Below the pieces are notes generated by a model, which was given only the letters and a program-made list of their open reading frames with translations, searched no databases and was not told the DNA's origin. 64,000 nucleotides of DNA from Alphaproteobacteria bacterium (lineage in GTDB: Bacteria > Pseudomonadota > Alphaproteobacteria > UBA8366 > GCA-2717185): NCBI GenBank assembly GCA_012103325.1, contig WLWY01000001.1, positions 1,153,653 to 1,217,652 of the forward strand, in the 5' to 3' direction. The position numbers and the translations under genes were made by a program. Positions 787 to 48,345 of this stretch are shown here, piece by piece. Position 1 is the stretch's first letter; every line of letters begins with the position of its first letter.

Positions 787-3700
787 GGGACGACGTCACC
801 GCCGAAGCGACCGCGCGGCAGCGCGATGCCTCCGATCCGGCCACAAGCGTCTGGGTGGCCGCTTCAGCGGGCAGCGGCAAAACGACCGTCCTGACCGACC
901 GGGTGCTGGCCCTGCTACTGACCGACACGCGCCCGGAGCGCATTCTCTGCCTCACCTTTACACGGGCGGCGGCCGCCGAGATGGCGCAGCGCATCAACCG
1001 CCGGCTCGCCCTGTGGGCAACCGAACCCGACCGGGACGTGCGCCAGGAAATCGCCGCCCTGCTCGACCGCGTGCCGGACGACGCCTTGCTCGACCGGGCG
1101 CGGCAGCTCTTCGCGCATGTTCTGGATGTTCCGGGCGGCTTGAAAATCCAGACCATCCACAGCTTCTGCCAGTCCTTGCTGGGCCGCTTTCCCCTCGAAG
1201 CTGAAATCGCGCCGCATTTCGAAGCGATCGACGAACGCAGCGCCGCCGAACTTCTCATGACGGCGCGGGATTCCGTCCTGTCGTCGGCCCGGACCGGCGG
1301 ACCGCTCGCCGACGCGCTCGACGTCGTCACGGGCTATATCCAAGAGGACTCATTCGGCGAGATGATGGCGCAGCTGGCGCGCGACCGCGGGCGCATTCGC
1401 CGCCTCATCGATATGTATGGCAGTATCCCGAGCGTTGCCGCGGCACTGGCGAAAAAGCTCGGGATCGCTCCGGGGCGGCGAGCCGAGGACGTCGTCGCCG
1501 ATGCCTGCCGCGATGGGGTCTTCGATACGGACGCTCTCGCCGTGGCCATAGACGCCTTGCTGGCAGGCACCGAAAAAACCGACCAGCCGCGCGGCCAACT
1601 GATCGCCCGTTGGCTAACATCCGATCCATCCGTGCGGGCGGCGTCGTTTGCCGATTACGCAGCAGGTTTCCTCACGCAGGACGGCGAACCGCGCAAGGTG
1701 CTCATTACCCGTAAGGCCGCCGAAGCCGCCCCCGACGCGGCGGAAACGCTCGCCATCGAGGCGGCGCGGCTGGTGCGGATCATGGAACAACGCCGTGCGG
1801 CGATAACCGCCGAAGCGACGGTGGCGTTGCTGCAGCTGGGCGCGGCACTCCTCGACGCCTACGAGAAGGCGAAAGCAGCGCTCGCCCGGCTCGACTATGA
1901 CGATCTGATCCTCAAGACGATCGCCTTGCTGCGCGAGAATGTCGACGCCGCCTGGGTCCTGTTCAAGCTGGACGGCGGACTCGATCACATCCTGATCGAC
2001 GAGGCGCAGGACACCAATCCGGACCAATGGGCCGTCGTCGCGGCGCTTGCCGAAGAATTCTTTTCCGGCGCCGGTGCACGGCCGGAGGTGCGAACGGTCT
2101 TCGCCGTCGGCGATTCGAAACAGTCGATCTTCAGCTTCCAGCGCGCCGACCCCGCCGCCTTCTCGGACATGCGGCGGCATTTCAGGGACCGAATCGAGGC
2201 CGCCGAAGCCGCCTGGCGCGATGTGGAGTTAAACTGGTCGTTCCGGTCGACCGCCCCGGTACTTGCCGCCGTGGATGCTGTCTTCGATCAGGACACGGCG
2301 CGCGACGGCGTCATTCCGGACGGCGTAACGATCGAGCACCGGGCCGTACGAACCGGCCATGCCGGTTCGGTCGAAGTCTGGCCTCTTATCGGTCCGCGCG
2401 ATACATCGCCCCTCGCGCCGTGGACCCCGCCGCTCACCCGGGAGCCGGCGGACAGCCCCTCGACACGGCTGGCAAACGCTCTTGCCCACCGTCTGGAGGG
2501 TTGGATCGGATGCGAAGCTCTGCCATCGAAGGGCCGGCTTGTCCGCGCTGGCGACATTATGGTCCTGGTGCGCCGGCGCAACAGCTTCGTCACGGATCTC
2601 GTCAGCGCGCTCAAGGCGCGGGATATCCCCGTCGCTGGCGTCGACCGGATGGTTTTGAGCGAACAACTGGCCGTTATGGATCTGGTCGCGCTGGGCGATT
2701 TTCTGCTCCTGCCGGAAGACGATTTGACCCTTGCAACGGTCATGAAAGGGCCCTTCATCGGCTTCGACGACGACGATCTGTTCACGCTGGCCTATAACCG
2801 GGGAAGCACAACATTGTGGCACCGGCTGGCCGATATGGCGGCCGATGACGACCGCTTTGCAGCGGCGTACGACTGGCTCGCGCGGCTGCTCGCCATCGTC
2901 GATTTTTCGCCGCCCTACGAGCTTTTCGCCCGGCTGCTCTCCGAACCGACAATTGCCCAAGACACCGGCCGGCAACGCATCGTCGCCCGGCTCGGCATCG
3001 AGGCGGAGGATCCGATCGAGGAGTTCCTCAACCTGGCGCTCGCCCATGAGCGCACCGATGTCCCGTCATTGCAAAACTTCCTGCATTGGCTGAAGGCCGG
3101 GGACGCGACGATAACGCGCGATCTCGAACACAGCGGCCGCGACGAGGTACGGATCATTACGGTGCACGGCGCGAAAGGCTTGCAGGCGCCGATCGTTATC
3201 CTGCCGGATACCACGACCGCACCCCGTTCCAGCCCGGCCGTTCTCTGGACCGACGATCTGCCGCTCTGGCCACCCAACCGTTCGCACGAACCGGCATTGT
3301 GCGTCGCCGCACGCGCGGACGCCAACTGGCGGCGCGACCAGGAATACAGACGATTGCTATATGTCGCGATGACCCGCGCCGAGGACCGTCTTCTCGTCTG
3401 CGGCTGGCACGGCCGGCAGGAACCGTCCGACACAAGCTGGTATGCGCTGATGCGCGACGGCATCGCACCGATCGCCGAAACCTTCGAATTCACAATGGAC
3501 GGCGAAGATGGCTGGAGTGGAGACGGGCTGTGCCTCGCATCGGCGCAAACCGCCGAAATCGAACCGTTCGTAGCATCGGAACTGCCGGAGACGATCGCGG
3601 AGCCGGCATTGTGGATGAACCGGCCGCCGGATCCGGAACCGACGCCACCCCGGCCACTCGCACCGTCACGGCCGTCCGCCGATCCGCCCGTTCTTTCTCC

Positions 3701-16242: not shown

Positions 16243-16318
<76 letters not shown>

Positions 16319-32570: not shown

Positions 32571-32913
32571 AGGTCTTCTCCTTTTCTACGCTTCACTTCA
32601 ACGGAACCAAAAAGTTCCAAACGAATTGCTTTAAACGGGGAAACCGGAAGGAAACCGACACGAACGGTGCGGGTCGTGACGTCCATGCGTCCCACTCTCA
32701 TGAGAAGGGTTGAGGGTTCCGAACCGAATTGACCCGGCGTGCCCAACCTTTCATCGATGGAAGCGGAAAGCATGGAGATGTACTGGCGCTGAGCGCCGCC
32801 ATGCCTGATCTGGTCTGCCATGCAGCCGAAGCTGCAAAACAAACGCAAATCTGGTTTCCTTCCGGCGCCCCAATATTGTGACTGTCTAAAAGTCAGGAGC
32901 GATTTTCAGTCGC

Positions 32914-32983
32914 ATTGATGGAGGGAATCGAACCCTCGACAGCTGAAGCCTAAGTTCAGTGCTCTTCCTCTGAGCTACATCCG
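32914..32983 (-). tRNA. tRNA-like element (class I, anticodon UAG) with imperfect acceptor stem; possible pseudogene
   Basis: D-arm, anticodon arm (CTGAA-CTTAGGC-TTCAG) and T-arm (GAGGG-TTCGATT-CCCTC) are canonical. Acceptor pairs 2:71 and 3:70 are mismatched, there is no CCA, and the variable loop is short despite a Leu-type anticodon. It abuts the CCA of the neighbouring tRNA. Confidence 0.45.
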
Positions 32984-33059
32984 TGGGGGCCATGGCAGGA
33001 GTCGAACCCGCGACATCCGGATTCGAAATCCGGTGCTCTTCCAGCTGAGCTACATGGCC
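32984..33059 (-). tRNA. tRNA with anticodon UCG (Arg by the genetic code), CCA encoded
   Basis: Acceptor GGCCATG/CATGGCC, D-arm GCTC-AGCTGGAA-GAGC, anticodon arm CCGGA-TTTCGAA-TCCGG, T-arm GCGGG-TTCGACT-CCTGC, discriminator C, CCA. The UCG anticodon is uncommon in bacteria. Confidence 0.75.
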
Positions 33060-39154: not shown

Positions 39155-41239
39155 ATGAACAAACGTATCCGCATCGGGGTCGATGTCGGCGGGACCTTCA
39201 CGGATTTCGTGCTGGTCGATGAAGAACGGGACCTGATCTATACGGGCAAGCGTTTGACGACACCGGACGACCCGAGCGCCGCAATCCTCGACGGCACGGC
39301 ACGGCTGCTTACCGAAGCGGGCACGGAACCGGCGCAAGTCCACAGCATCGTCCACGGCACGACCCTGGTCACCAACACGATCATCGAACGCAACGGCGCG
39401 AAGATCGGGCTGATCACCACCAAGGGCGTGCGCGACACCTTGGAGATGGGCAAAGAGATCCGCTACGACCTCTACGATCTGTTCCTCGAAGCGCCGCCCA
39501 CCCTCGTCCCGCGCCACCTGCGCCGGGAAGTCGCGGAGCGTGTCGCGCCGGACGGTGAGATCCTGCTCGATTTCGATGCGGATGCGTTCCGCGCCACAGC
39601 CCTCGACCTCATCGAAACCGAGAAGGTGGAAGCGATTGCCGTCTGCTTCATGCACGCCTACCGCAACCCGGATCATGAGCGCCAAGCCAAGGCGATTCTG
39701 ATGGAGGAGTTCGACGCGACGCCGTTCACCATCTCCTCCGATGTCGCACCGGAAATCCGCGAGTTCGAACGCACCAGCACCGCCTGCGCCAACGCCTATG
39801 TGCAACCGCGCATGCAGAGCTATCTGCAGCGGCTCGAAACCGAACTGCAGGCGCAAGGCCATTCGGGCGCGCTGTACGTCATGTTGTCCGGCGGCGGCAT
39901 CACCACTGTCCAGTCGGCCCGCGAATTTCCCATCCGTCTCATCGAGTCGGGTCCAGCGGCAGGTGCCATGGCCGCGTCGTACTACAGCACCCTGACCGAC
40001 ACCGAGAACCTGATCTCCTTCGACATGGGCGGCACCACGGCGAAGATGTGCCTGATCGATGGCGGCCAGCCCGACCGCAAGCATGATTTCGAAGCCGGCC
40101 GGGTGCGCCGCTTCCAGAAGGGCTCCGGCCTGCCGCTCAAAGTCTCCGTCGTCGACATGATCGAGATCGGCGCCGGCGGCGGCAGCCTTGCCAATGTCGA
40201 CAATATGGGTCTGCTGAAGGTCGGGCCGCGCAGCGCCGGCTCCGCGCCGGGGCCGGTCTGCTACGGGCTCGGCGGCACCGACCCGGCCGTGACCGACGCC
40301 GACCTCTATCTCGGCTACCTCAACCCCGACTACTTCCTCGGTGGGGAGATGAGGCTCGACATGGCGACGGTGGAACAGGCGATCGAGGAGAAGATCGCCA
40401 AACCGCTCGGCCTCTCGACCCTGGACGCCGCCATCGGCATCCACAACATCGTCAACGAGAACATGGCCGCCGCGACGCGCATGCATCTGGCCGAGAAGGG
40501 CCGCGACCCACGGCGCTATCAGATGATCGCCTTCGGCGGTGCCGGGCCGGTGCATGCTTACGGCCTCGCGCAAATCCTGAAGCTCAAGCGGCTGATCGTG
40601 CCGCTCGGTGCCGGCGTGACCTCGGCGCTGGGATTCCTCGTTGCGGCACCGGCCATCGATTATGTACGCAGCTACGTCTCGCGGCTGGAGCAGCTCGACT
40701 GGGGGCATCTCAACACGCTGTTCAAGGAGATGGAGGAAGAGGCCAAGGGACTGCTCGTCGATGCCGGCGCCCAGCCCGAGGAAATTACCCTGACGCGGAC
40801 GGCGGACATGCGGCATATCGGGCAGGGATTCGAGATTGCGGTGCCGGTTCCGGAGGGCGAATTAACACCCGGTCTTCTACCGGGTATTCGGGAGGCGTTT
40901 TTCCAGTCCTATCACCGGCTGTTCGAGCGTACGGTTCGGGATGTTTCCATTGAATCAATGAGTTGGCGTCTTGCCGCGAGTGCACCAGTGCCCAACATCA
41001 AACTTGCGTTCGGCGGACAGTCGTCGGAAACGGGGGAAGCGCTGAAAGGCACCCGCCAGGTCTACTTCCCAGAGACTGGATTCGCCGCCTGCGACGTCTA
41101 CGACCGCTACGCGCTGCACCCGGGCGACAGCTTCACCGGCCCGGCGGTCGTCGAGGAGCGCGAATCGACCACGGTGATCGGCCCCGGCGGTTCGGTCACC
41201 GTCGACCCATACCGCAATTTGATCTGTGCACTGCCCTAA
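39155..41239 (+). CDS. hyuA: Hydantoinase A / oxoprolinase family protein
   Basis: MNKRIRIGVDVGGTFTDFVLVDEE with an ASKHA-fold body. An alternative start lies at 39143. Confidence 0.85.
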   Translation: MNKRIRIGVDVGGTFTDFVLVDEERDLIYTGKRLTTPDDPSAAILDGTARLLTEAGTEPAQVHSIVHGTTLVTNTIIERNGAKIGLITTKGVRDTLEMGKEIRYDLYDLFLEAPPTLVPRHLRREVAERVAPDGEILLDFDADAFRATALDLIETEKVEAIAVCFMHAYRNPDHERQAKAILMEEFDATPFTISSDVAPEIREFERTSTACANAYVQPRMQSYLQRLETELQAQGHSGALYVMLSGGGITTVQSAREFPIRLIESGPAAGAMAASYYSTLTDTENLISFDMGGTTAKMCLIDGGQPDRKHDFEAGRVRRFQKGSGLPLKVSVVDMIEIGAGGGSLANVDNMGLLKVGPRSAGSAPGPVCYGLGGTDPAVTDADLYLGYLNPDYFLGGEMRLDMATVEQAIEEKIAKPLGLSTLDAAIGIHNIVNENMAAATRMHLAEKGRDPRRYQMIAFGGAGPVHAYGLAQILKLKRLIVPLGAGVTSALGFLVAAPAIDYVRSYVSRLEQLDWGHLNTLFKEMEEEAKGLLVDAGAQPEEITLTRTADMRHIGQGFEIAVPVPEGELTPGLLPGIREAFFQSYHRLFERTVRDVSIESMSWRLAASAPVPNIKLAFGGQSSETGEALKGTRQVYFPETGFAACDVYDRYALHPGDSFTGPAVVEERESTTVIGPGGSVTVDPYRNLICALP

Positions 41240-42033
41240 TCGCTGTTGCGTAAGTAAACGACCCAGTAAACCAGCGCCACTAGCACGCTGCCGCCGACGA
41301 TATTGCCGAGCGTCACCGGCACGAGGTTGGCAAGGAAGGACGTCATCGTCACCCCCTCCGCCCCGGCGAACCAACCGACCGGGATCAGATACATGTTCGC
41401 CACCGAATGCTCGAAGCCGAGGGCGACGAAGGCGGTGATCGGGAACAGGATGGCGAGGATCTTGCCGCTGACCGAATGCGCCGCCATGCACAGCCACACC
41501 GCGAGGCAGACCAGCGTGTTGCACAGCATGCCGCGCACGAACGCCTCGGCGAAGGGCAAGGCCACCTTGGCGCTCGCAATATTGCGCGCCGTTGTTGCGA
41601 CCGCGCCGTCGCCCAACTCCAGGGTGCCCGACCATGATACGAACACCGCCGTCGCCACCGCCCCGATGAAATTCCCGACATAGACCAGCAGCCAGTTGCG
41701 CAACAACCGCGCGGTCGTGATGTGACGGCTCGCCCAGGCCATGACGATCAGGTTGTTGCCGGTGAACAGCTCCGCCCCTGCAACGACAACCAACACCAGG
41801 CCGAGCGAAAACGCCGCCCCGCCGAGCAGACGCGCCGGCCCGAACCCCAGCCCGGACTCTGTGATCGCGACGGTGAAGAACATGCCGCCGAACGCGATGA
41901 ACGCCCCCGCCAGCACGCCCAGCACCAGCGTCTTCTGCACGGAAAGCGCGGCCTTGGTGACGCCGGCCTTCTCCACCCGCGCCGCGACTTCAGCGGGAGC
42001 ATAGGCATCGATTTGGTTGGGAGACAATTGCAT
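41236..42033 (-). CDS. Formate/nitrite transporter (FNT) family channel
   Basis: 265 aa, similar to FocA/NirC throughout (…LGVLAGAFIAFGGMFFTVA…FTGNNL…). Convergent with, and overlapping, the end of hyuA. Confidence 0.8.
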   Translation of the reverse strand: MQLSPNQIDAYAPAEVAARVEKAGVTKAALSVQKTLVLGVLAGAFIAFGGMFFTVAITESGLGFGPARLLGGAAFSLGLVLVVVAGAELFTGNNLIVMAWASRHITTARLLRNWLLVYVGNFIGAVATAVFVSWSGTLELGDGAVATTARNIASAKVALPFAEAFVRGMLCNTLVCLAVWLCMAAHSVSGKILAILFPITAFVALGFEHSVANMYLIPVGWFAGAEGVTMTSFLANLVPVTLGNIVGGSVLVALVYWVVYLRNSD

Positions 42034-42085: not shown

Positions 42086-42291
42086 CCTCTCCCTGTGGGG
42101 AGATTTCTGCGAAATTGCGAATGGAGCCGTTTCACCCCCCATCCTAACCTTCCCCCACAAGGGGGGAAGGGATAATTTAGATAGATCAATAGGTTATTCT
42201 CCTCCCCCTTGAGGGGGGAGGATTAAGGTGGGGGTGAAACGGCTCCATTCGCAATTTCGCAGAAATCTCCCCTCAGGAGAGGGTATATCGA
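42086..42291. repeat. ~200-bp GC-rich nested palindromic intergenic element, copy 1
   Basis: 53-bp arms (CCTCTCCCTGTGGGGAGATTTCTGCGAAATTGCGAATGGAGCCGTTTCACCCCC and its reverse complement) flank two inner hairpins, CTTCCCCC-ACAA-GGGGGGAAG and TCCTCCCCC-TTGA-GGGGGGAGGA. A related copy lies at 45252-45570. Confidence 0.75.
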
Positions 42292-42455
42292 CAACGCAAT
42301 CTGCGTCGCTTCGAAAATTCTACATGCGATCGCCCTGGCGTGAACAGGGGTGTCGATTCCTGCATGGCGACGCCGCACTCTCCAAGTGTCCGAATGGCTA
42401 TCGACAGCCTGCGCGCGATACTATGCTATCGCGCGAAAGAGCGAGAGGAGAATCC

Positions 42456-43697
42456 ATGTTCGAGCGCGTAAAACCGGAAAGCGTCGGCCTGTCGGGAGTC
42501 CGCCTGCAGCGGATCGCGCCCTGGATGGACGATTATGTCCATAGCGGCAGGTTTCCGGGCTGCCTGACCGCCATCCTGCGCCGCGGCGAACTCGCCTATC
42601 TCGACTGCCGCGGCATGGCCGACCCGGACAGCGGCCGCGCGGTCGCCGAGGATACGGTGTTCCGCATCTACTCCATGACCAAGCCTATCGTGACGGCGGC
42701 GGCGATGACGTTCTTCGAGGAAGGCCGCTTCCAACTCGACGACCCGGTCGCGCGCTTCCTGCCGGAATTCGCCGACACCCCCGTCTGGGTCGAGGGCGAA
42801 GGCAGCGCGATGCGCACCGAGCCGGCCGCGGACAGCATGAAGATCTGGCACTTGATGAGCCACACGGCGGGGCTGGTCTACGGCGCCCGCAACGACAGCC
42901 CGGTCGGCGCGATGTGCCGCGAGAACGGCATCGACTTTTCGCGCCGCAACGGCGGTTCGCTCGCCGACACGGTGCGCAACCTGGCGAAGATTCCCCTGCG
43001 CTGGCAACCGGGCACGCGCTGGGAATACAGCGTGGCCACCGACGTGCTGGGCCGCCTCGTCGAAGTCCTGGCGGAACAATCTTTGGATCAGGCACTCAAG
43101 CACCGCATCTTCGACCCGTTCGGCATGCACGAGACCGGCTTCCAGCTGCAGCCCGGCCAGTTGCCGCGCTTCGCCGCCCTGTTCAATGCCAAGGACGGCG
43201 GCCTGGAACTGAACGAACGGCCTGACGAAAACGCCAGCCACGCGCGCGACGTCACCTTGTGCTCCGGCGGCGGCGGGCTGGTTTCCACCGTGGGCGACTA
43301 TCTGCGCTTCGCTGAGGCGATCCGATGCAAGGGCGCGCTCGGTGATGCGCGCGTCGGTGATGCCCGCATCCTGGGCCGCCGCACTGTCGAGTTGATGACC
43401 ATGAACCACATGCCGGGCAATGCCGATCTGGCGGCGATGGGTACGCCGGTGCATAGCGAGACGAGTTACGAAGGCATCGGCTTCGGGCTCGGCTTCTCCG
43501 TCGTGCTCGACCCGGCAACCGCCAAGGCGGCCTGTTCCACGGGCGAGCATGCCTGGGGCGGGGCGGCTTCCACGGCTTTCTGGATTGACCCGGTCGAGGA
43601 CATTGTTGTCGTATTCATGACGCAAGTCATGCCGTCCTCAAGCTACCCGATCCGCCGCGAGTTGCGGTCGCTCGTCTATCAAGCAGTCATAGACTAG
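42456..43697 (+). CDS. Serine hydrolase, beta-lactamase/transpeptidase-like (class C/EstB-type esterase family)
   Basis: SxxK motif FRIYSMTKPIV. The start is placed at MFERVKPESVG, preceded by GAGAGGAG; the ORF track extends upstream through the palindromic repeat. Confidence 0.8.
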   Translation: MFERVKPESVGLSGVRLQRIAPWMDDYVHSGRFPGCLTAILRRGELAYLDCRGMADPDSGRAVAEDTVFRIYSMTKPIVTAAAMTFFEEGRFQLDDPVARFLPEFADTPVWVEGEGSAMRTEPAADSMKIWHLMSHTAGLVYGARNDSPVGAMCRENGIDFSRRNGGSLADTVRNLAKIPLRWQPGTRWEYSVATDVLGRLVEVLAEQSLDQALKHRIFDPFGMHETGFQLQPGQLPRFAALFNAKDGGLELNERPDENASHARDVTLCSGGGGLVSTVGDYLRFAEAIRCKGALGDARVGDARILGRRTVELMTMNHMPGNADLAAMGTPVHSETSYEGIGFGLGFSVVLDPATAKAACSTGEHAWGGAASTAFWIDPVEDIVVVFMTQVMPSSSYPIRRELRSLVYQAVID

Positions 43698-43744
43698 TGT
43701 CCTGATCGCAAAATTCGAGGGATTTTGCGTGAATCAGCACACCA
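43694..43744. repeat. CTAGTG-bounded palindromic element, copy B (type 1 variant)
   Basis: CTAGTGTCCTGATCGCAAAATTCGAGGGATTTTGCGTGAATCAGCACAC. Relative to copy A, both sides of the central stem have changed (CGCAAAAT / ATTTTGCG) while pairing is preserved. The element overlaps the TAG stop of the upstream gene. Confidence 0.7.
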
Positions 43745-43796
43745 AGAAAATGGTCATTTGAAATCAAGCAAACCACAACACAAGAGGAGAAACGAC

Positions 43797-44099
43797 ATGG
43801 CGAAAAAGACCCCTTACGAAATGGTCCCGCAACTGGGCAAGCTGCGCGACGAAGTGCTGTTCGGCGATGTTTGGGAACAGCCGGAGCTGACCAAGCGCGA
43901 CCGCAGTCTGGTCACGATTTCCGTGCTGACCGCGCTGTACCGTACCGACGAGCTGAAAGGCCACATGAAGCGCGCGCTCGACAACGGCGTCACCCAGGAC
44001 GAAATCCGCGGCATGATCACCCATCTGGCGTTCTATGCGGGTTGGCCGACGGCGGTAAATGCGGGGCGAATTGCCGTGGAGGTGTTCGAGGACGACTAG
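43797..44099 (+). CDS. Carboxymuconolactone decarboxylase (AhpD-like) family protein
   Basis: About 100 aa with a CMD signature (…SVLTALYRTDELKGHMKRALDNGVTQDEIRGMITHLAFYAGWP). AGGAG Shine-Dalgarno upstream. Confidence 0.75.
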   Translation: MAKKTPYEMVPQLGKLRDEVLFGDVWEQPELTKRDRSLVTISVLTALYRTDELKGHMKRALDNGVTQDEIRGMITHLAFYAGWPTAVNAGRIAVEVFEDD

Positions 44100-44293
44100 G
44101 GCGCGCGGGCGGTATTCACCCGACATCCGACCGACGTCATCCCAGACGCGGCTTTCCTCCAAATCTCTGATTTGGCAAGGAAAGGCAGCGATCAGGGATC
44201 CAGACTCTTCGTGTGTGAGCGGCGTTTCCTGGATCCCGGATCAAGTCCGGGATGACGATGAATGGGAAGTATAGGAACACAGGGAGTGACATC

Positions 44294-45058
44294 ATGGCAC
44301 GCGTACAGGACAAGGTAGCAATCGTCACCGGCGCGGCGATGGGGCTCGGCGCCGCAATCGCGCTGCGGCTGGCGGAAGAAGGCGCCAAGCTCATGCTGGG
44401 CGACATCGACGCGGACGCGCTCGAGACCTCCGCCGCGAATGCAAAAGCCGCCGGGGCCGAGGTGGAAACCCTGGTCGGCGACGTGACAGAGGAAGGCCCC
44501 GCTGCGGCTTTGATCCAAGGCGCGCTCGACCGGTTCGGGCAGCTCGACATCCTGGTCAACAATGTCGGCGGCAGCCGCAATTCGAAGATCTGGGAGATGC
44601 CGGTCGAAGACTGGGACCACACGGTGAAGCTCAATCTGCGCGGCACCTTCCTGTGCACCCGTGCCGCGGTGCCGCATATGATGGAACGCAAAGCGGGCAA
44701 GATCATCTGCCTGTCCTCCGGTGCGCGCGAGGGCACGCCCTGGACCGCGTACTATCAGGGCGGCTCGGCCTACTCCGCCTGCAAGGCGGGCGTGCACGGC
44801 TTCATCCGCGACGTGGCGCTCGAACTGGCCGAATACAACATCAACGTCAACGCCGTCGGCCCCGGCCCGATCGACACCGAACGCGCCGGCGCGACGCTGC
44901 GCCAGATGAACGAAACCGTGGAATACAGCCCCAACCACATGACCCCGCTCGGCCGCCTCGGCCAACCAAAAGAGGTCGCCGACGCGGTCCTGTTCCTGGC
45001 CTCCGACGAAGCGTCGTACATCTCGGGACACACCCTGGCGGTGGCCGGCGGACGGTAA
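44294..45058 (+). CDS. SDR family oxidoreductase
   Basis: Cofactor motif TGAAMGLGAAIA, NNVG, and the catalytic region SSGAREGTPWTAYYQGGSAYSACKAG. Confidence 0.85.
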   Translation: MARVQDKVAIVTGAAMGLGAAIALRLAEEGAKLMLGDIDADALETSAANAKAAGAEVETLVGDVTEEGPAAALIQGALDRFGQLDILVNNVGGSRNSKIWEMPVEDWDHTVKLNLRGTFLCTRAAVPHMMERKAGKIICLSSGAREGTPWTAYYQGGSAYSACKAGVHGFIRDVALELAEYNINVNAVGPGPIDTERAGATLRQMNETVEYSPNHMTPLGRLGQPKEVADAVLFLASDEASYISGHTLAVAGGR

Positions 45059-45070
45059 CCGCGCGCCCGA

Positions 45071-45102
45071 CCCTGCAAATCTCGCAAGCAGGGTTGTTGT
45101 TT
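45071..45102 (+). terminator. Rho-independent terminator after the SDR gene (first of two)
   Basis: CCCTGC-...-GCAGGG followed by TTGTTGTTT. Confidence 0.55.
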
Positions 45103-45145
45103 AATCCCCCCTGATTTTGTATAAAAAGCCTATCAGCAAGATCTG

Positions 45146-45179
45146 CGCCCGCCCGGAAAACTCCGCGGCGGGCTTTTTC
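45146..45179 (+). terminator. Rho-independent terminator (second)
   Basis: GCCCGCCCGG-AAAACTC-CGCGGCGGGC followed by TTTTT. Confidence 0.7.
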
Positions 45180-45251
45180 GTGGCTCGCTCAAATTACGGT
45201 GGCGAACAGCGCACATCGTGATCCTAGCCGCGATCCATTCCTCACGTCCGT

Positions 45252-45570
45252 TGTTCTCCCCTCACCCCGCCCTGAATGCCTTTGTGGGCATCCAGCCCCA
45301 AGGAGAGGGAGAATCAGCGCGCCGATCTAGACCCTCTCCCCACGAAGACCTCTGCGAAATAGTGCCAATGACATCGTTTCACCCCCCATCCTATCCTTCC
45401 CCCACAAAGGGGGAAGGGATAACTCACAGAGATCAACAGGTTGTTCTCCTCCCCCTTGAGGGGGGAGGACTAAGGTGGGGGTGGACGGCGGCTCCCCCTG
45501 CTGTTTCGCAGAGGTCTCCCACGGGAGAGGGAGGGCCCCGCGGAGCGGGAGGGTGAGGGGAAAACATGTC
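45252..45570. repeat. GC-rich nested palindromic element, copy 2 (with additional outer inverted repeat)
   Basis: Core GTTTCACCCCCCATCCTATCCTTCCCCCACAAAGGGGGAAGGGATAA…TCTCCTCCCCCTTGAGGGGGGAGGACTAAGGTGGGGGTG is about 90% identical to copy 1. Outer inverted repeat TTCTCCCCTCACCCCGCC / GCGGGAGGGTGAGGGGAAAA. Confidence 0.7.
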
Positions 45571-45606: not shown

Positions 45607-47793
45607 ATGCCCCGATTGCCCGGCGTGCGAGATGTCACGCGTGTATCGACCGACGGCCTGCGCCTGCCCGCCCTGAACGCGCCCGCGCCCGATCCGACCG
45701 GGGCGGCGCTGCAGGAGGTCGGGCGGTCGCTGGGCGACTTCGGCGAGGCGCTCGACGATTTCGCCCGCAAGCGCAAACGGCTCAAGGAGGCGGACGAAAG
45801 ACTCAAGGCGCAGAAATTCGATGCCGACTTGGCCAAGGGACGCGCCGTTTCGCCGCCGGACGGTTTCTTCTTCGAAGACGCGGACGAGGATGGCGAGGGT
45901 GAGGCGCGCATCGGTGGCGCGGCCACCCCAAGCGCGGACAATCCGCCCCTGCTCTCCTTCGAGGAAGCGGGCGACGCTCACATAAAGCGAATTCAAAACC
46001 CCGAGCAGCAGGCGCGTCACCAAAAGATCTTCGATGGCCACAAGAAGTTCCGCCTTATCGACCGCGGCGTCGAAGACCAGAACATCGGCGCCGCCAATCT
46101 CGTGTTCCGCGTCGACGGCATCCTCGACCGGCACCGCGAAACCGTGTCCGCCAAACCGGACATGATCAAACTGTCGCTGGAGAAAGGACGCGGCGTCCTG
46201 CGCCAGAACAAAGACGATCTGGGCTGGTCCGACGAGACCCTGCGCGAGAAGGAGGCGGCCTTCGAGCGCAGCCTCGACGTGGCGCTGTTGCGCGGCCGCA
46301 TCGCCCGCGGCGAGACCGTACCGGTGCTGGACTTTCTCAAAGGCCCCGACGCCCGGACCCTGCTGGACGGAGACAGCATCGCCGGCCTGACCCGGGAGGC
46401 GGAAGCGCGCGAGGCCAGCGAGGTGACGGCGATCCTGAGCGATATGGATATCCATGGCGCGGCGACCGAGCGGGCCGGGACCGGCCTCGAAGGCCTGCCG
46501 GAGCGCGCGGCCGAGACCCTGCCGCCGGAACAGTTCGATGATTTCGAAGTGGCCCAGCGCCGGGCGCGGACCCTGTTCGACTTTGGACAGCAGCATGGCG
46601 CGTCCTCGCAATCGGAAATCGAGGCGGCGGCGAAAGCACTGCGTCCCGCCGAAGGCACGGGTGCGGCGGATCAGAAGACGTTCGAGGCGGTCACGGACAA
46701 GGCGCAGCGCATCATCGCCGAGCGTCACGCCGAGCGGGCGGTCACGCGGAGCCTGGCGGTACAGGAAAAGCGAGAGGTGCCAGAAGAGCTGCGCAAGGTG
46801 CTGCCGAAGGAAGAAGCGCGCACCATGGCGGCCGACCTGGACGCCCTGCCGGCACTGGCCCGCGCGCCAGAAATTCTGAAACTGAAGGAGAAGTACGGCA
46901 AGCATTTCGACGCGGTGTTGCCGCAGATGCGGACGGAGGGGCTCGACCCGGAAACCGCCGCCATTGCCGCCGTCGCCGACAATCCCAAGGCGCTTCAGAC
47001 CGTGCTGCAGGCCATGGGCGTGCCCTATGCGCAACTGACCGAAGGCAAGACGCCGGACGAGGTCGCCGATCTGCGCGCGGCCCTCGCGGTGGAGCGGGAC
47101 GTCCTGGAGCAGCAGGGCCGCCTCGACCCCGCCATCGAGGGCTTCGTCTATGAGAAGATCGCCCTGCGCGGTCTCGAGCAAAGCGGCAACACGCAGCTCG
47201 CTGTGAAACGCGCCATGAAAACCTTCGCGGGACCGGACGACGCGGTCGCTAGCGACGATTCGGTTTTTGGGGAAGTGGGTAATGACCTTCTAATCGAAGG
47301 AAATAGTAACGATGCGCAGACTGGCAGCTCAATCAGCCTCACATCGGCGCAGCCCTCTAATCAATTAGGTGCAGAGAATACACTTTCTCTGGACGCCGAT
47401 GAAGATGAACTTCTAGACCTTGCAGAACTAGACCCAGCTACCATTCGTGCGCTCAGCAATCTTCGCGCACTCCTCAGGCAGAATAGAAGCAAAGGCGTTT
47501 CCAGCCAGAAATCGGGTTTAAAGTTCGTTGAGAAAAATTGGGATCCCGTAAATATAATCCCATGGCCGAAGGCTTTTATGCATCATTACAAGAAGCATGC
47601 ACCGCCGGGAATGTCACCTGTCGAGTATACTCAAAGAGCAATAAAATCATGGAAAACACGGCTTGAACCGGGATCAAACATCACAAAATCAACAGACGCG
47701 CTCGGGCGACGAGCGATCATGGTAGAAACATCAACAGGTGTAGGTCTTTATACGCCAAGCGGGAGAGCAATATGGTTCAGACCAAAAAAATGA
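45607..47793 (+). CDS. Large Ala/Glu-rich hypothetical protein with an AT-rich C-terminal module (candidate polymorphic toxin)
   Basis: 728 aa with no domain I recognise. The first ~1.67 kb is high-GC; from about 47280 the coding sequence becomes strongly AT-rich. The C-terminal ~170 aa reads FVEKNWDPVNIIPWPKAFMHHYKKHAPPGMSPVEYTQRAIKSW…GRAIWFRPKK. Confidence 0.6.
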   Translation: MPRLPGVRDVTRVSTDGLRLPALNAPAPDPTGAALQEVGRSLGDFGEALDDFARKRKRLKEADERLKAQKFDADLAKGRAVSPPDGFFFEDADEDGEGEARIGGAATPSADNPPLLSFEEAGDAHIKRIQNPEQQARHQKIFDGHKKFRLIDRGVEDQNIGAANLVFRVDGILDRHRETVSAKPDMIKLSLEKGRGVLRQNKDDLGWSDETLREKEAAFERSLDVALLRGRIARGETVPVLDFLKGPDARTLLDGDSIAGLTREAEAREASEVTAILSDMDIHGAATERAGTGLEGLPERAAETLPPEQFDDFEVAQRRARTLFDFGQQHGASSQSEIEAAAKALRPAEGTGAADQKTFEAVTDKAQRIIAERHAERAVTRSLAVQEKREVPEELRKVLPKEEARTMAADLDALPALARAPEILKLKEKYGKHFDAVLPQMRTEGLDPETAAIAAVADNPKALQTVLQAMGVPYAQLTEGKTPDEVADLRAALAVERDVLEQQGRLDPAIEGFVYEKIALRGLEQSGNTQLAVKRAMKTFAGPDDAVASDDSVFGEVGNDLLIEGNSNDAQTGSSISLTSAQPSNQLGAENTLSLDADEDELLDLAELDPATIRALSNLRALLRQNRSKGVSSQKSGLKFVEKNWDPVNIIPWPKAFMHHYKKHAPPGMSPVEYTQRAIKSWKTRLEPGSNITKSTDALGRRAIMVETSTGVGLYTPSGRAIWFRPKK

Positions 47794-48134
47794 AGCTATT
47801 GGAAAACAGGTTAGAAATCATCCGTAACCAAACGTTACCCATTTTTGATTACGAAAATGATAGAGATATATTCGATGCTATCTGCCAAATCTTTACGGAT
47901 GAGAGTGGCTTTGCTGGGATAGCGTACAGGCTGGTTGACAACCCATCTGCAACAATTTCGGATGAAGAAAGAAAAGCAGTTATAGATCCGGTATTCTCAA
48001 CGCCCGGAAAGTTACTTGGTAGAAGTGGCGAGGAAATTGATCTGAGAAGTGCGCCGGAGGTAGTAAAATATGCTGAAAATATGGACGAACTCAGAAAAGC
48101 AATTATAGAAGTAAGCAAAGATAAGGAGACATAA
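47790..48134 (+). CDS. Small low-GC ORF overlapping the end of the upstream gene (candidate immunity protein)
   Basis: Its ATG overlaps the upstream stop (ATGA); the ORF track starts at 47772. 115 aa, acidic, low-GC like the upstream C-terminal module. No recognisable family. Confidence 0.45.
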   Translation: MKLLENRLEIIRNQTLPIFDYENDRDIFDAICQIFTDESGFAGIAYRLVDNPSATISDEERKAVIDPVFSTPGKLLGRSGEEIDLRSAPEVVKYAENMDELRKAIIEVSKDKET

Positions 48135-48189
48135 TGAGCTAACCCGGGTTTGATGGACAGTTTAATTGAGCACGATTGCTCCGTTCTTC

Positions 48190-48345
48190 GTATGCGGCCG
48201 GACTTATGCATTGGGAAATACCGGGAAATACGGTGACGGAAATACGGTGACAGTGCACTTTACTAAAGCAAGGTGCGTGAGCTGACAGAAATCACGTATG
48301 CCCCCTCTCGCCGAACAGATTAAGTGCACTGTCACCGTAAATTAA
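48190..48345. repeat. Iteron-like direct repeats and inverted repeat in a non-coding spacer
   Basis: GGGAAATACCGGGAAATACGGTGACGGAAATACGGTGAC (three GAAATAC units). Inverted repeat CGGTGACAGTGCAC … GTGCACTGTCACCG. TTAAGTGCAC occurs twice. Confidence 0.55.

Follow-up and report, generated by a model that had tools for sequence, protein, structure and literature searches.

BIMEs of enterobacteria are mosaics of PU/REP units and linking motifs, and they bind IHF, gyrase and Pol I. RIMEs of the Rhizobiaceae were reportedly described by Osteras et al. in 1995. Counts of RIMEs and Sm-repeats have been reported (PMC3738161), and 'untagged' REP-like families have been named as an open class (PMC3733652). 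Among nucleases, the EDxHD/Vsr-like homing endonucleases have been grouped with DUF559 (PMC3424549). Here we describe two composite palindromes in a 64-kb stretch of DNA, referred to as the window. An earlier sequence-only reading had likened them to RIME/BIME-type mosaics, and as a description of architecture this holds: they are assembled from reusable palindromic modules and belong to a dispersed family, with members in the loci L161 and L027.

Two nested palindromes in intergenic DNA

The window contains two GC-rich nested palindromic copies, recovered as inverted repeats at 42086-42285 and 45252-45566, where the sequence-only reading had placed them. As it had also proposed, both are intergenic and flank a serine hydrolase, a CMD-family and an SDR gene, assignments that Pfam supports in all three cases. 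Copy 1 is a near-perfect palindrome of 200 nt with the module order mini-hairpin, arm, tail, hairpin A, spacer, hairpin B, tail, arm', mini-hairpin':

42086-42285, unstranded: copy 1, whole composite palindrome (inverted repeat I1; fold; arm complementarity)
42088-42103, unstranded: left terminal mini-hairpin TCTCCC-TGTG-GGGAGA
42104-42129, unstranded: left outer arm TTTCTGCGAAATTGCGAATGGAGCCG, pairing with 42240-42265
42130-42170, minus strand: left unit, tail TTTCACCCCCCATCCTAA and hairpin A CCTTCCCCC-ACAAG-GGGGGAAGG
42171-42199, unstranded: spacer separating the two head-to-head units
42200-42239, plus strand: right unit, hairpin B TCCTCCCCC-TTGAG-GGGGGAGGA, linker TTAA, tail GGTGGGGGTGAAA
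42240-42282, unstranded: right outer arm (42240-42265) and right mini-hairpin (42266-42282)

The outer 47-nt arms of copy 1 are complementary at 45 of 47 positions, and its C5-6/G5-6 hairpins occupy 42148-42170 and 42200-42222. Folded as a single strand, copy 1 reaches -155.9 kcal/mol (z = -15.4), a value equalled by none of 200 shuffles. The left unit, read on the minus strand, consists of a hairpin followed by a G-run tail. The left-arm module is found again in copy 2 and in L161, and conservation of the spacer is limited to these closest copies. The CCCTCTCCC/GGGAGAGGG-type stem, as in the left mini-hairpin, is the fifth commonest stem class at the family loci, with 30 of 568 strand-wise hits.

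Copy 2 spans 45252-45566 and repeats the design of copy 1 in nested form, an inner composite being accompanied by an outer inverted layer (45252-45312 paired with 45515-45566):

45332-45531, unstranded: copy 2 inner composite, module order as in copy 1 (inverted repeat I2)
45252-45312, unstranded: outer left layer, tail TTCTCCCCTCACCCCGCC, small inserted hairpin CTGAATGCC..GGCATCCAG, then CCCCAAGGAGAGGG (repeats I16, D4)
45515-45566, plus strand: outer right layer, hairpin TCTCCC-ACG-GGAGAGGG, GC hairpin CCCCGCGGAGCGGG, tail AGGGTGAGGGGAAAACA (repeat I16)

The C5-6/G5-6 hairpins of copy 2 lie at 45395-45417 and 45447-45469, and the small inserted hairpin module also interrupts the left hairpin of L161. 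Copy 2 folds at -173.5 kcal/mol (z = -6.6).

The copies lie in direct orientation (repeat D1), 3.2 kb apart, with 81% identity over 151 nt. Their shared 109-bp cores (42128-42236 and 45375-45483) match at 100 of 109 positions (92%), in agreement with the roughly 90% claimed earlier. The arms differ by 26-43% between copies, and copy 1's own arms are 96% complementary; one between-copy arm change is two-sided (GATTTC/GAAATC versus GACCTC/GAGGTC). Dinucleotide shuffles of the window yield 0 expected matches to the element hairpins. The same stretch of DNA appears in three independently built assemblies (L121, L122, L123), on which ground an assembly artefact was rejected; the short-read contig L123 begins at window position 42243, in the right arm of copy 1, and stops at 45157, about 95 bp before copy 2. 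A blastn search of the elements against 72,556 plasmids, rhizobial megaplasmids included, gave no match. The open reading frames over the palindromes had been dismissed as spurious, plausibly so, given that a search of 5.8 billion proteins returned no homologue of the 112-aa ORF lying across copy 2.

A hairpin unit dispersed across phyla

In the basic unit of both elements, about 40 nt long, a 9-bp hairpin of a pyrimidine run and a purine run is followed by a linker of 3-5 nt and then by the G-run tail GGTGGGGGTGA. Two such units form the core of each element, arranged head-to-head with the hairpins inside and separated by a 29-nt spacer. The window units (42130-42170 and 42200-42239 in copy 1, 45377-45417 and 45447-45485 in the inner composite of copy 2) are all intergenic, and modules of the element are present at 2 sites only in the 64 kb. 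For this analysis the unit was defined as an 8-9-bp CCYTCCCCC/GGGGGARGG hairpin joined by 3-5 nt of linker to a GG(G)TGGGGGTG(A) tail, a pattern that both window right units fit exactly. As single-stranded DNA, each unit is predicted to form a hairpin with an unpaired tail (-10.9 kcal/mol for the hairpin of the copy 1 left unit).

An exact 21-mer of the unit occurs in at least 120 contigs with labels spanning many phyla, a seed that skews the sampled loci toward one hairpin variant. Over 40-41 nt, the window right units are identical to units in L074, L013, L062 (Atribacterota) and L050 (unclassified bacterium). A third composite copy, 89% identical over 119 nt, lies on a different contig from the same sequencing project (L161), and a Rhodospirillaceae MAG (L027) carries three doublets in 4.4 kb with 82-84% identity over 108-128 nt. 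In rhizobial contigs with the 21-mer the unit has three parts, a GC hairpin standing between the hairpin and the G-run tail, and it usually forms tail-to-tail dimers. Across the family, hairpin units, tails, arms and mini-hairpins combine head-to-head, tail-to-tail or nested. CGTC stands beside the tail in some copies only (copy 2, L027, L071, L161).

Among 13 family members, two-sided UA to CG swaps leave the local hairpins intact, and 96-98% of cells are paired. At those same columns the pairing across units is broken, and only the local hairpins are conserved.

Association of the unit with DUF559 genes

In other phyla, the unit flanks small DUF559 genes (Vsr-fold, PD-(D/E)XK endonuclease) as inverted repeats, in the layout hairpin-tail, 10-80 nt, ORF, tail-hairpin. 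These genes are free-standing, encode about 110 aa and are bracketed by hairpin units; in L102, a shortened DUF559 ORF lies between the units. Among the 21-mer matches listed, a DUF559 ORF adjoins the unit in 7 of 120 loci, and in 3 of 3 further DUF559 loci inspected in the DNA sequence the left unit lies directly against the start codon. Wherever a gene lies between or next to units, it is DUF559 (10 of 10 such loci) and never a Y1 transposase. Furthermore, of 138 diverse DUF559 proteins, taken as representatives clustered at 50% identity, 89 have unit-encoded peptides (...HPPLTPPIKGGE, SPLRGEGQGGG) at their ends, compared with 1 of 120 controls. The right unit of copy 1 is identical at 41 of 41 positions to the unit directly upstream of the DUF559 gene on the Atribacterota contig L074. 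The orientations differ: the window doublets are head-to-head, whereas the DUF559 genes lie between tail-to-tail units. An HMM built from 118 DUF559 proteins and run over all six frames of the 64-kb window detected neither a DUF559 gene nor a remnant of one, and it gave no significant similarity in the outer arms of the elements, where bit scores were negative. Identical DUF559 proteins have the same gene neighbours in every case (18 and 20 contigs) and thus give no direct sign of recent DUF559 movement.

We consider it likely that the window holds a non-autonomous REP/REPIN-, BIME- or RIME-like mosaic repeat, separately inserted twice, whose units come from DUF559-associated repeats. Two elements would have landed in two intergenic regions that happen to be 3 kb apart. 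The pair of units would have been extended in this lineage by a palindromic arm and a terminal mini-hairpin, and copy 2 would additionally have become nested within another unit pair. On single-stranded or extruded DNA, the unit may fold into a hairpin with a free G-run tail and be recognised by a nuclease specific to it, whose gene would lie elsewhere in the genome. Reasoning from RAYT and REPIN, we postulate that this nuclease is most likely a DUF559 protein and that DUF559 would mobilise the repeat units. New copies could arise by repair or copy-in at intergenic sites, and fold-back or arm-to-arm copying may keep young copies near-perfect palindromes. Against this explanation, no target-site duplication is evident: a direct repeat was not seen at the copy 1 junctions (GCGCGTTT / GTATATCG) or at copy 2, and the relatives' empty sites are too diverged to fix the junction. 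The small number of sites, 2 in 64 kb and 0 in the relatives' loci, also speaks against it. So do the lack of DUF559 in the window, the fixed gene context of identical DUF559 proteins, the differing orientation of the doublets and the skew of the 21-mer seed.

The unit pair might instead be a classical REPIN: a REP doublet that owes its spread to a single-copy RAYT gene (Y1 transposase, PF01797) at some other locus, with DUF559 irrelevant here. The core is indeed an extragenic inverted doublet of short palindromic units with a spacer of about 30 nt, its hairpins are kept through compensatory change, and REP families typically form head-to-head and tail-to-tail dimers (PMC3733652). We nevertheless judge a classical REPIN unlikely. 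The GTAG/CGTC tag is missing next to the stem, the stems do not begin with the A/T of CGTC REPs, no RAYT-like YxxxNP motif turned up in a crude scan of the 64-kb window, the genes at the ten loci above are DUF559 rather than Y1 transposases, and Group 1 RAYTs are rare in Alphaproteobacteria (PMC5581495).

For the mosaic repeat with DUF559-associated units, the wider distribution hints at more: the unit flanking DUF559 genes across phyla may belong to an undescribed REP-like selfish-DNA system. Tentatively, and with more doubt than conviction, we suggest that the unit and its nuclease gene of about 110 aa could form an undescribed pan-bacterial counterpart of REPIN-RAYT, or else an ultra-small homing-type selfish element. 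If so, the DUF559 nuclease would recognise the unit and give rise to non-autonomous dimers and mosaics, the two window elements among them, and cross-phylum transfer would explain the 40-nt identity of units between Alphaproteobacteria and Atribacterota.

Genomic setting and comparison with relatives

The copies are set among the following features:

41236-42033, minus strand: formate/nitrite transporter (FNT) gene, flanking copy 1 on the left and divergently oriented to the hydrolase gene (Pfam)
42456-45058, plus strand: flanked genes, beta-lactamase-fold serine hydrolase (42456-43697), CMD-family (43725-44099) and SDR (44252-45058) (Pfam)
45145-45180, plus strand: terminator-like GC hairpin and T-run, between the SDR gene and copy 2 (read straight from the sequence; not called by a simple consensus scan)

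Copy 1 has the FNT gene on its left and the hydrolase gene on its right. Copy 2 sits downstream of the SDR stop (45058) and the terminator-like hairpin, upstream of an orphan ORF (45607-47793). In relatives with a 79-85% identical hydrolase, the order HydB-HydA-FNT-hydrolase-CMD-SDR, hydantoinase genes first, is kept, and the flanked segment has the same gene order in L124-L128. Its three genes are contiguous with FNT in L124, L125, L127 and L128 and directly follow the hydantoinase genes in L126, in each case with the element absent. The FNT-hydrolase spacer spans 72-110 nt in L124, L125, L127 and L128 compared with 423 nt in the window, and the unit motif is absent from the relatives' 15-kb loci. 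Since the relatives keep synteny with short spacers that lack the element, the copies are best read as lineage-specific insertions into intergenic DNA. Judged from these sequences, the hydrolase, CMD and SDR genes are ancestral and not part of the element.

This setting bears on whether the copies serve the host as a structured RNA or DNA element (terminator, attenuator, mRNA stabiliser, sRNA or protein-binding site) regulating the three-gene block. Both copies fold very strongly, host roles are known for BIMEs, and RIMEs and other rhizobial intergenic repeats have been reported to be transcribed (PMC3738161). Such a role is nonetheless improbable. The relatives' orthologous spacers retain the proximal promoter/operator sequence and lack the element, copy 1 lies between divergent genes and so not in a terminator position, and copy 2 is unneeded as an operon terminator because the terminator-like hairpin already follows the SDR gene. 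The palindrome is, moreover, strand-symmetric, and Rfam returns generic (miRNA) hairpins only, below threshold.

The proposal of the sequence-only reading that the copies delimit a mobilisable or recombination-prone three-gene cassette fares worse and is very improbable. It could draw on the direct orientation and 3.2-kb distance of the copies and on the position of copy 2 at a synteny breakpoint, where genes downstream of the SDR vary among relatives and the window has an orphan 728-aa ORF and a low-GC patch instead. However, the synteny of the three genes in the element-free relatives largely refutes it, the GC content of these genes resembles that of their surroundings, 81% identity over 151 nt implies that the copies are not a recent duplication, and Pfam revealed no integrase or transposase nearby. 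Least probable is that a single odd palindrome was duplicated locally and has no relatives beyond. The presence of just two sites in 64 kb, lying as close together as two random sites would with an estimated chance of about 0.1, and flanked genes that are syntenic and ancestral would suit it, but the copy on a different contig, the related alphaproteobacterial doublets and the unit's presence across phyla in at least 120 contigs refute it, the element not being unique to the two sites.

Comparison with known systems

The window units are short extragenic palindromes within the 20-40 nt of REPs, and their stems are maintained by compensatory change. They form an inverted doublet with a short spacer, and the whole window element folds as one long hairpin, as in REPINs. 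Like the RAYT gene of REPIN systems (Nunvar 2010; Bertels & Rainey 2011; PMC3116915, PMC5581495), DUF559 is a small nuclease gene flanked by its own units and stable at one locus. REPs reach tens to hundreds of copies per genome; the counts here are 2 sites in the 64 kb, 1 more on a separate contig of the project and 3 doublets within 4.4 kb of a related MAG. In contrast, the GTAG/CGTC tag is absent beside the window stems, where the conserved flank is a G-run tail on the 3' side of the hairpin; the protein is of the Vsr-fold PD-(D/E)XK type (PF04480/PF18741) rather than an HUH Y1 transposase; and REPs are specific to their lineages, while the unit hardly varies between phyla. CGTC-tagged REPs (Di Nocera et al. 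2013, PMC3733652) resemble the units in their 8-9 bp stems, 4-5 nt loops, short unpaired tail and mostly head-to-head dimers, and are common in Alphaproteobacteria, Rhodospirillales and relatives included. Their stems start with A/T and their tail is CCA, unlike the CCYTCCCCC stem and GGTGGGGGTGA tail found here.

With BIMEs the elements share the mosaic build, in which palindromic units alternate in orientation and are joined by arms, mini-hairpins and a second GC hairpin, as well as the intergenic location and nested clusters. The unit sequence is unrelated to the enterobacterial PU/REP Y and Z units, and only the mosaic principle is common. By architecture, the elements also resemble the RIME and Sm-repeat of Rhizobiaceae as alphaproteobacterial intergenic mosaic palindromes, and the outer right layer of copy 2 is three-part like the rhizobial variant, with an extra GC hairpin between hairpin and tail. 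They differ in source, a marine-type Rhodospirillaceae-like alphaproteobacterial MAG rather than Rhizobium, and in range, the unit occurring in many phyla rather than being restricted to Rhizobiaceae; Rfam contains no RIME model. MITEs (Correia/NEMIS, ERIC) are similar in their 100-300 bp length, terminal inverted repeats, intergenic insertion and presence or absence among relatives, but here no target-site duplication is seen, the element terminates in hairpins at both ends and a DDE-transposase parent is missing.

Finally, EDxHD/Vsr-like homing endonucleases such as I-Bth0305I (Taylor et al. 2011, PMC3239194) share a fold clan with DUF559. I-Bth0305I-type enzymes reside in group I introns and inteins of phage and host genes, in contrast to the free-standing DUF559 genes, and they show that Vsr-fold nucleases are able to drive the spread of selfish DNA.

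Anatomy of the two palindromic elements

The two palindromic elements both lie in intergenic DNA and flank a beta-lactamase-fold hydrolase gene, a CMD gene and an SDR gene. The assignments of these genes, and of the formate/nitrite transporter (FNT) gene to their left, are borne out by Pfam. Features of the locus, in window positions, are as follows.

42086-42285: copy 1, an almost perfect palindrome of 200 nt
42413-42434: imperfect palindrome GCGCGATACTATGCTATCGCGC, ~25 nt upstream of the hydrolase start codon and kept in L124 and L125 (relatives with the same genes); probably the operator of a local regulator
42456-43697: hydrolase gene
43725-44099: CMD gene
44252-45058: SDR gene
45145-45180: GC-rich hairpin with T-run, GCGCCCGCCCGG...CCGCGGCGGGCTTTTT, directly after the SDR gene; it looks like an intrinsic terminator (putative)
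45252-45312 and 45515-45566: extra inverted layer of copy 2, enclosing the inner composite
45332-45531: inner composite of copy 2, the same composite as copy 1
45607-47793: orphan ORF of 728 aa, matching nothing in Pfam, NCBIfam or PHROG

Folded as a single strand, copy 1 reaches -155.9 kcal/mol vs -74 in shuffles (z = -15.4), and copy 2 has a z of -6.6. The core common to both copies is identical at 100 of 109 positions. Neither of its C-run/G-run hairpins is expected by chance in shuffled sequence, and no further module of this kind occurs elsewhere within the 64-kb window. The pair is present as the sequence-only reading had described it. Three independent assemblies carry the identical sequence, and a contig from short reads begins within copy 1 and stops ~95 bp before copy 2, so the elements are real DNA and not an assembly fold-back. 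The overlying ORFs, already suspected to be spurious, do not merit annotation as genes; a protein search with the 112-aa one, which overlies copy 2, gave no matches and no further copies of the element.

The composite is built from the following modules, in order.

Module 1: mini-hairpin, TCTCCC-N3-4-GGGAGA
Module 2: arm, 26-28 nt
Module 3: C-run tail, TTTCACCCCCCATCCTA
Module 4: hairpin A, CCTTCCCCC/GGGGGAAGG
Module 5: spacer, 29 nt
Module 6: hairpin B, TCCTCCCCC/GGGGGAGGA
Module 7: linker and G-run tail, TTAAGGTGGGGGTGAAA
Modules 8 and 9: arm', then mini-hairpin'

This order identifies the core as one unit, consisting of hairpin, linker and G-run tail, present twice in head-to-head arrangement. 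Folded as ssDNA, each unit gives a hairpin of 9 bp and leaves its tail free (-10.5 to -10.9 kcal/mol). Copy 2 has as its outer layer a second pair of hairpin-tail units, the right one with an additional GC hairpin separating hairpin from tail and the left one with a small inserted hairpin. Four G3+ runs are present in the most frequent form of the unit, GGGGGGAGGGTTGGGGTGGGGG; a G-quadruplex switch was dropped for the window element, as no G3+ x4 motif is present on either strand of the window copies.

Under a model of local hairpins, 96-98% of cells in 13 doublets are paired, and UA to CG swaps are fully compensated at one pair per hairpin (the search seed biases the data for hairpin B; those for hairpin A are unbiased). 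A model pairing unit A with unit B fails at those swap columns, leaving 9/13 and 6/13 unpaired, and its covariation score over the 13 doublets is no better than that of shuffles. Since local pairing is kept and cross-unit pairing is broken, the object under selection is the single unit rather than the long palindrome, and the local hairpin is what is conserved. The arms of copy 1 are complementary at 45 of 47 positions, arm difference among composites amounts to 26-43%, and one difference is two-sided (GATTTC...GAAATC vs GACCTC...GAGGTC). Such an arm pattern would be expected under either arm-to-arm copying or a fold-back intermediate.

The flanked genes are ancestral

The DNA is assigned to an alphaproteobacterial MAG (GCA_012271395.1), and its hydrolase occurs on a 1.8-Mb contig as well. 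Homologues of the hydrolase with 79-85% identity are found on contigs of related organisms. The order FNT-hydrolase-CMD-SDR is the same in L124 and L125 (85%) and in L127 and L128 (79%, labelled Rhodospirillaceae), and, like the window, the latter two have hydantoinase genes upstream of it; L126 (81%) carries the same block without FNT. The spacer 5' of the hydrolase measures 72-110 nt in L124-L128 vs 423 nt in the window, and the ~75 nt adjoining the hydrolase start codon are conserved in L124 and L125, where the element is absent. On the 3' side of the SDR gene, the spacer is 20-30 nt where an FAA-hydrolase gene comes next (L126, L127, L128), a different gene follows after 53 nt in L124, and the window has 549 nt. 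The unit motif occurs nowhere in the 15-kb loci of L124-L128, and the GC content of the three genes equals that of their surroundings. The genes are therefore ancestral, and both elements are later insertions. Synteny in relatives without the element, together with the ordinary GC content, refutes the earlier suggestion that the pair bounds a mobilisable cassette, which removes a false lead for this locus. The elements are intergenic mosaic palindromic repeats of the ordinary kind, and they flank three housekeeping-type genes by chance.

The relatives differ in the region downstream of the SDR gene, which places copy 2 at a synteny breakpoint, a single case from which the cause is not deducible. 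Here the orphan ORF and the low-GC patch that follows it (region 45607-48300; GC 0.44-0.52 vs ~0.65 around), with overlapping 120-aa ORFs on both strands, stand in place of the FAA-hydrolase gene of L126-L128 (and of a PALP gene too in L127 and L128). Together they look like a lineage-specific insertion adjoining copy 2. An IS1595-family transposase near the syntenic block of L126 (14379-15227) fits the variable downstream flank of the locus. The hairpin directly after the SDR gene was not called by a simple terminator consensus scan. Three tRNA genes in the window (16243-16315 and 32913-33059; two adjacent on the minus strand) are unrelated to the elements.

A repeat family at three levels

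The elements form a family at the levels of composite, head-to-head doublet and unit. A third composite, on a different contig from the same sequencing project (L161), has the same arms, units and spacer and matches at 89% over 119 nt. A small hairpin module, also present in the outer layer of copy 2, breaks the left hairpin of this third composite. A Rhodospirillaceae MAG contig (L027) holds three doublets within 4.4 kb, one per intergenic gap, and similar head-to-head doublets occur on other alphaproteobacterial contigs. An exact 21-mer of hairpin B, searched in one-genome-per-species bacterial genomes, matched at least 120 contigs. By record title, the matches listed include Nitrospirota, delta-type proteobacteria, Deinococcus, Atribacterota, Planctomycetota, Elusimicrobia, Omnitrophota, Spirochaetes, Chloroflexi (SAR202), Bacillota, and Alpha-, Beta- and Gammaproteobacteria. 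The flanks of the 21-mer hold a conserved unit, CCCTCCCCC-TTGA-GGGGGGAGGG, 3-5 nt, GGGTGGGGGTGA, and over 40-41 nt the right unit of the window matches units of Atribacterota and other contigs at 100%. Units are arranged solo, head-to-head (spacers of 17-64 nt) or tail-to-tail (7-54 nt).

Modular composites in a dispersed family, with doublets and a cross-phylum unit, agree in architecture with the RIME/BIME-type mosaic proposed at the outset. The sequence-only reading had also considered an ordinary local duplication, unique to these two sites among ancestral genes; the genes are syntenic and ancestral in the relatives, and the element, with its copy on L161, is not unique to the two sites.

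Rhizobial loci (L048 6239-6871 of Rhizobium sp. CG5, L011, L014, L019, L063, L085 and L106) carry a three-part unit of hairpin, TCGCCGCGAAGCGGCGG hairpin and GGGTGGGGGTGA, mostly in tail-to-tail dimers with partner ends CCCTCCCCCTCAAGGGGAGGG. In L013 (Atribacterota, ~3260-3330), a CGTC/TGTC-type REP, TGTCATTCCCGCGAAAGCGGGAAT, lies just upstream of a hairpin/G-run unit, placing two distinct REP-like families in one intergenic region. For the elements themselves, CGTC-REP membership was rejected on misfitting stem and tail rules, and a plasmid-borne or rhizobial origin was rejected as PLSDB blastn gave no match. The metagenome pattern GGTGGGGGTG N5-35 TTTCGCAG proved too loose, with one true relative (L161) in 120 loci among the matches listed.

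Physical association with DUF559 genes

In other lineages the unit is physically associated with DUF559 genes. A DUF559 ORF is present in 7/120 loci among the 21-mer matches listed: it lies within ~100 nt downstream of the 21-mer unit in L039, L042, L074, L080 and L102, starts ~400 nt downstream in L085, and stands between a variant unit and the 21-mer unit in L032. The layout comprises a hairpin-linker-GGGTGGGGGTGA unit, 10-80 nt, an ORF of ~110 aa and a CACCC..CC-hairpin unit, and the ORF often ends within the right unit. On L102 (4850-5200), a Nitrospirae-type groundwater MAG contig, the ORF between the units is limited to its 5' two-thirds, the right-hand unit CCCCTCACCCTATCCCTCTCCCACAAGGGGAGAGGG cutting it after ~67 domain residues. 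This locus resembles an intermediate of internal deletion, midway from a full DUF559 element to a short tail-to-tail dimer.

The association is also visible in the proteins. Among the best 120 homologues of one unit-adjacent DUF559 protein, all carry PF04480 and 118 carry PF18741. Most of them end in ...CL(S/N)HPPL(T/N)PP(I/L)KGGE, the right unit in translation, and the N-terminal SPLRGEGQGGG of some DUF559 homologues is the left unit. One fixed pattern of this unit-peptide signature matches 65/119 homologues and 89/138 representatives of 50% identity clusters, and 1/120 control proteins. In three DUF559 genes without the signature at protein level, the left unit adjoins the start codon, and two of the three have the right unit as well. 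The family comprises 26,964 clusters at 50% identity (E <= 0.001) and belongs to the Vsr clan of PD-(D/E)XK nucleases (PMC3424549), which includes the homing endonuclease I-Bth0305I (PMC3424549, PMC3239194).

The window unit is exactly identical to a DUF559-adjacent unit; within the 64-kb window, no DUF559 gene or remnant was found. A reading of the outer arms as remnants of a deleted DUF559 ORF was dropped as unsupported: 'SQFRRNLPSGE' resembles LRRNxTxxE by eye, and HMM bit scores were negative only. The neighbours of two DUF559 proteins, each present on 18-20 contigs, never vary, so that the gene acts as a stable single-locus gene like RAYTs, not as a jumping IS, and recent mobility is unsupported.

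In L251 (1160-1500), three hairpin-plus-tail units are repeated in tandem every ~100 nt directly upstream of a DUF559 start codon, and the 200 nt downstream show no unit. Many members of the P0121-P0389 sets of DUF559 proteins bear long low-complexity C-terminal extensions (repeated PSREGK, GEGxG), attributable to read-through into arrays of units, and many of their genes lie on contigs <2 kb, as expected of repeat-bounded DNA.

Origin of the elements and relation to known repeats

We propose that a DUF559 protein may recognise the unit and generate new copies, and that the window composites would have spread by such copying. An orientation mismatch speaks against this mechanism, as the window doublets are head-to-head and DUF559 is flanked by tail-to-tail units, and so does the lack of a DUF559 gene or remnant in the window; no target-site duplication is visible at the window elements. 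A REPIN driven by a RAYT is a possible alternative, but the GTAG/CGTC tag is missing and the window is without a RAYT-like motif. A regulatory-RNA element is unlikely, given that the elements are absent in orthologous spacers, that copy 1 lies between divergent genes, that a terminator-like hairpin already stands upstream of copy 2, and that Rfam yields no match at gathering score; at the E-value threshold it returns nothing beyond sub-threshold miRNA-precursor models, of a kind that any long hairpin will match, and membership of a known RNA family was rejected.

The building block, a REP-like unit without a tag, hardly varies across many phyla and is tied physically to DUF559. What raises the locus above routine interest is this cross-phylum unit bound up with an uncharacterised nuclease family. 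Searches of the open-access literature found no description of the unit or of a DUF559-repeat tie, which appears to be new. A single purified protein and one 40-nt oligonucleotide would be enough to test the tie directly. If functional, it would give a role to DUF559, a large family without assigned function, and account for the odd 'PLTPPLKGGE' ends of thousands of database proteins.

Among published repeats, the RIME/Sm-repeat families may correspond to the rhizobial three-part unit. REP-like repeats that lack both the GTAG and the CGTC tag are recognised as an open class, one whose partner protein is not known (PMC3733652). A functional tie between the unit and DUF559 would constitute a second, independent case of a domesticated nuclease maintaining a hairpin-repeat population.
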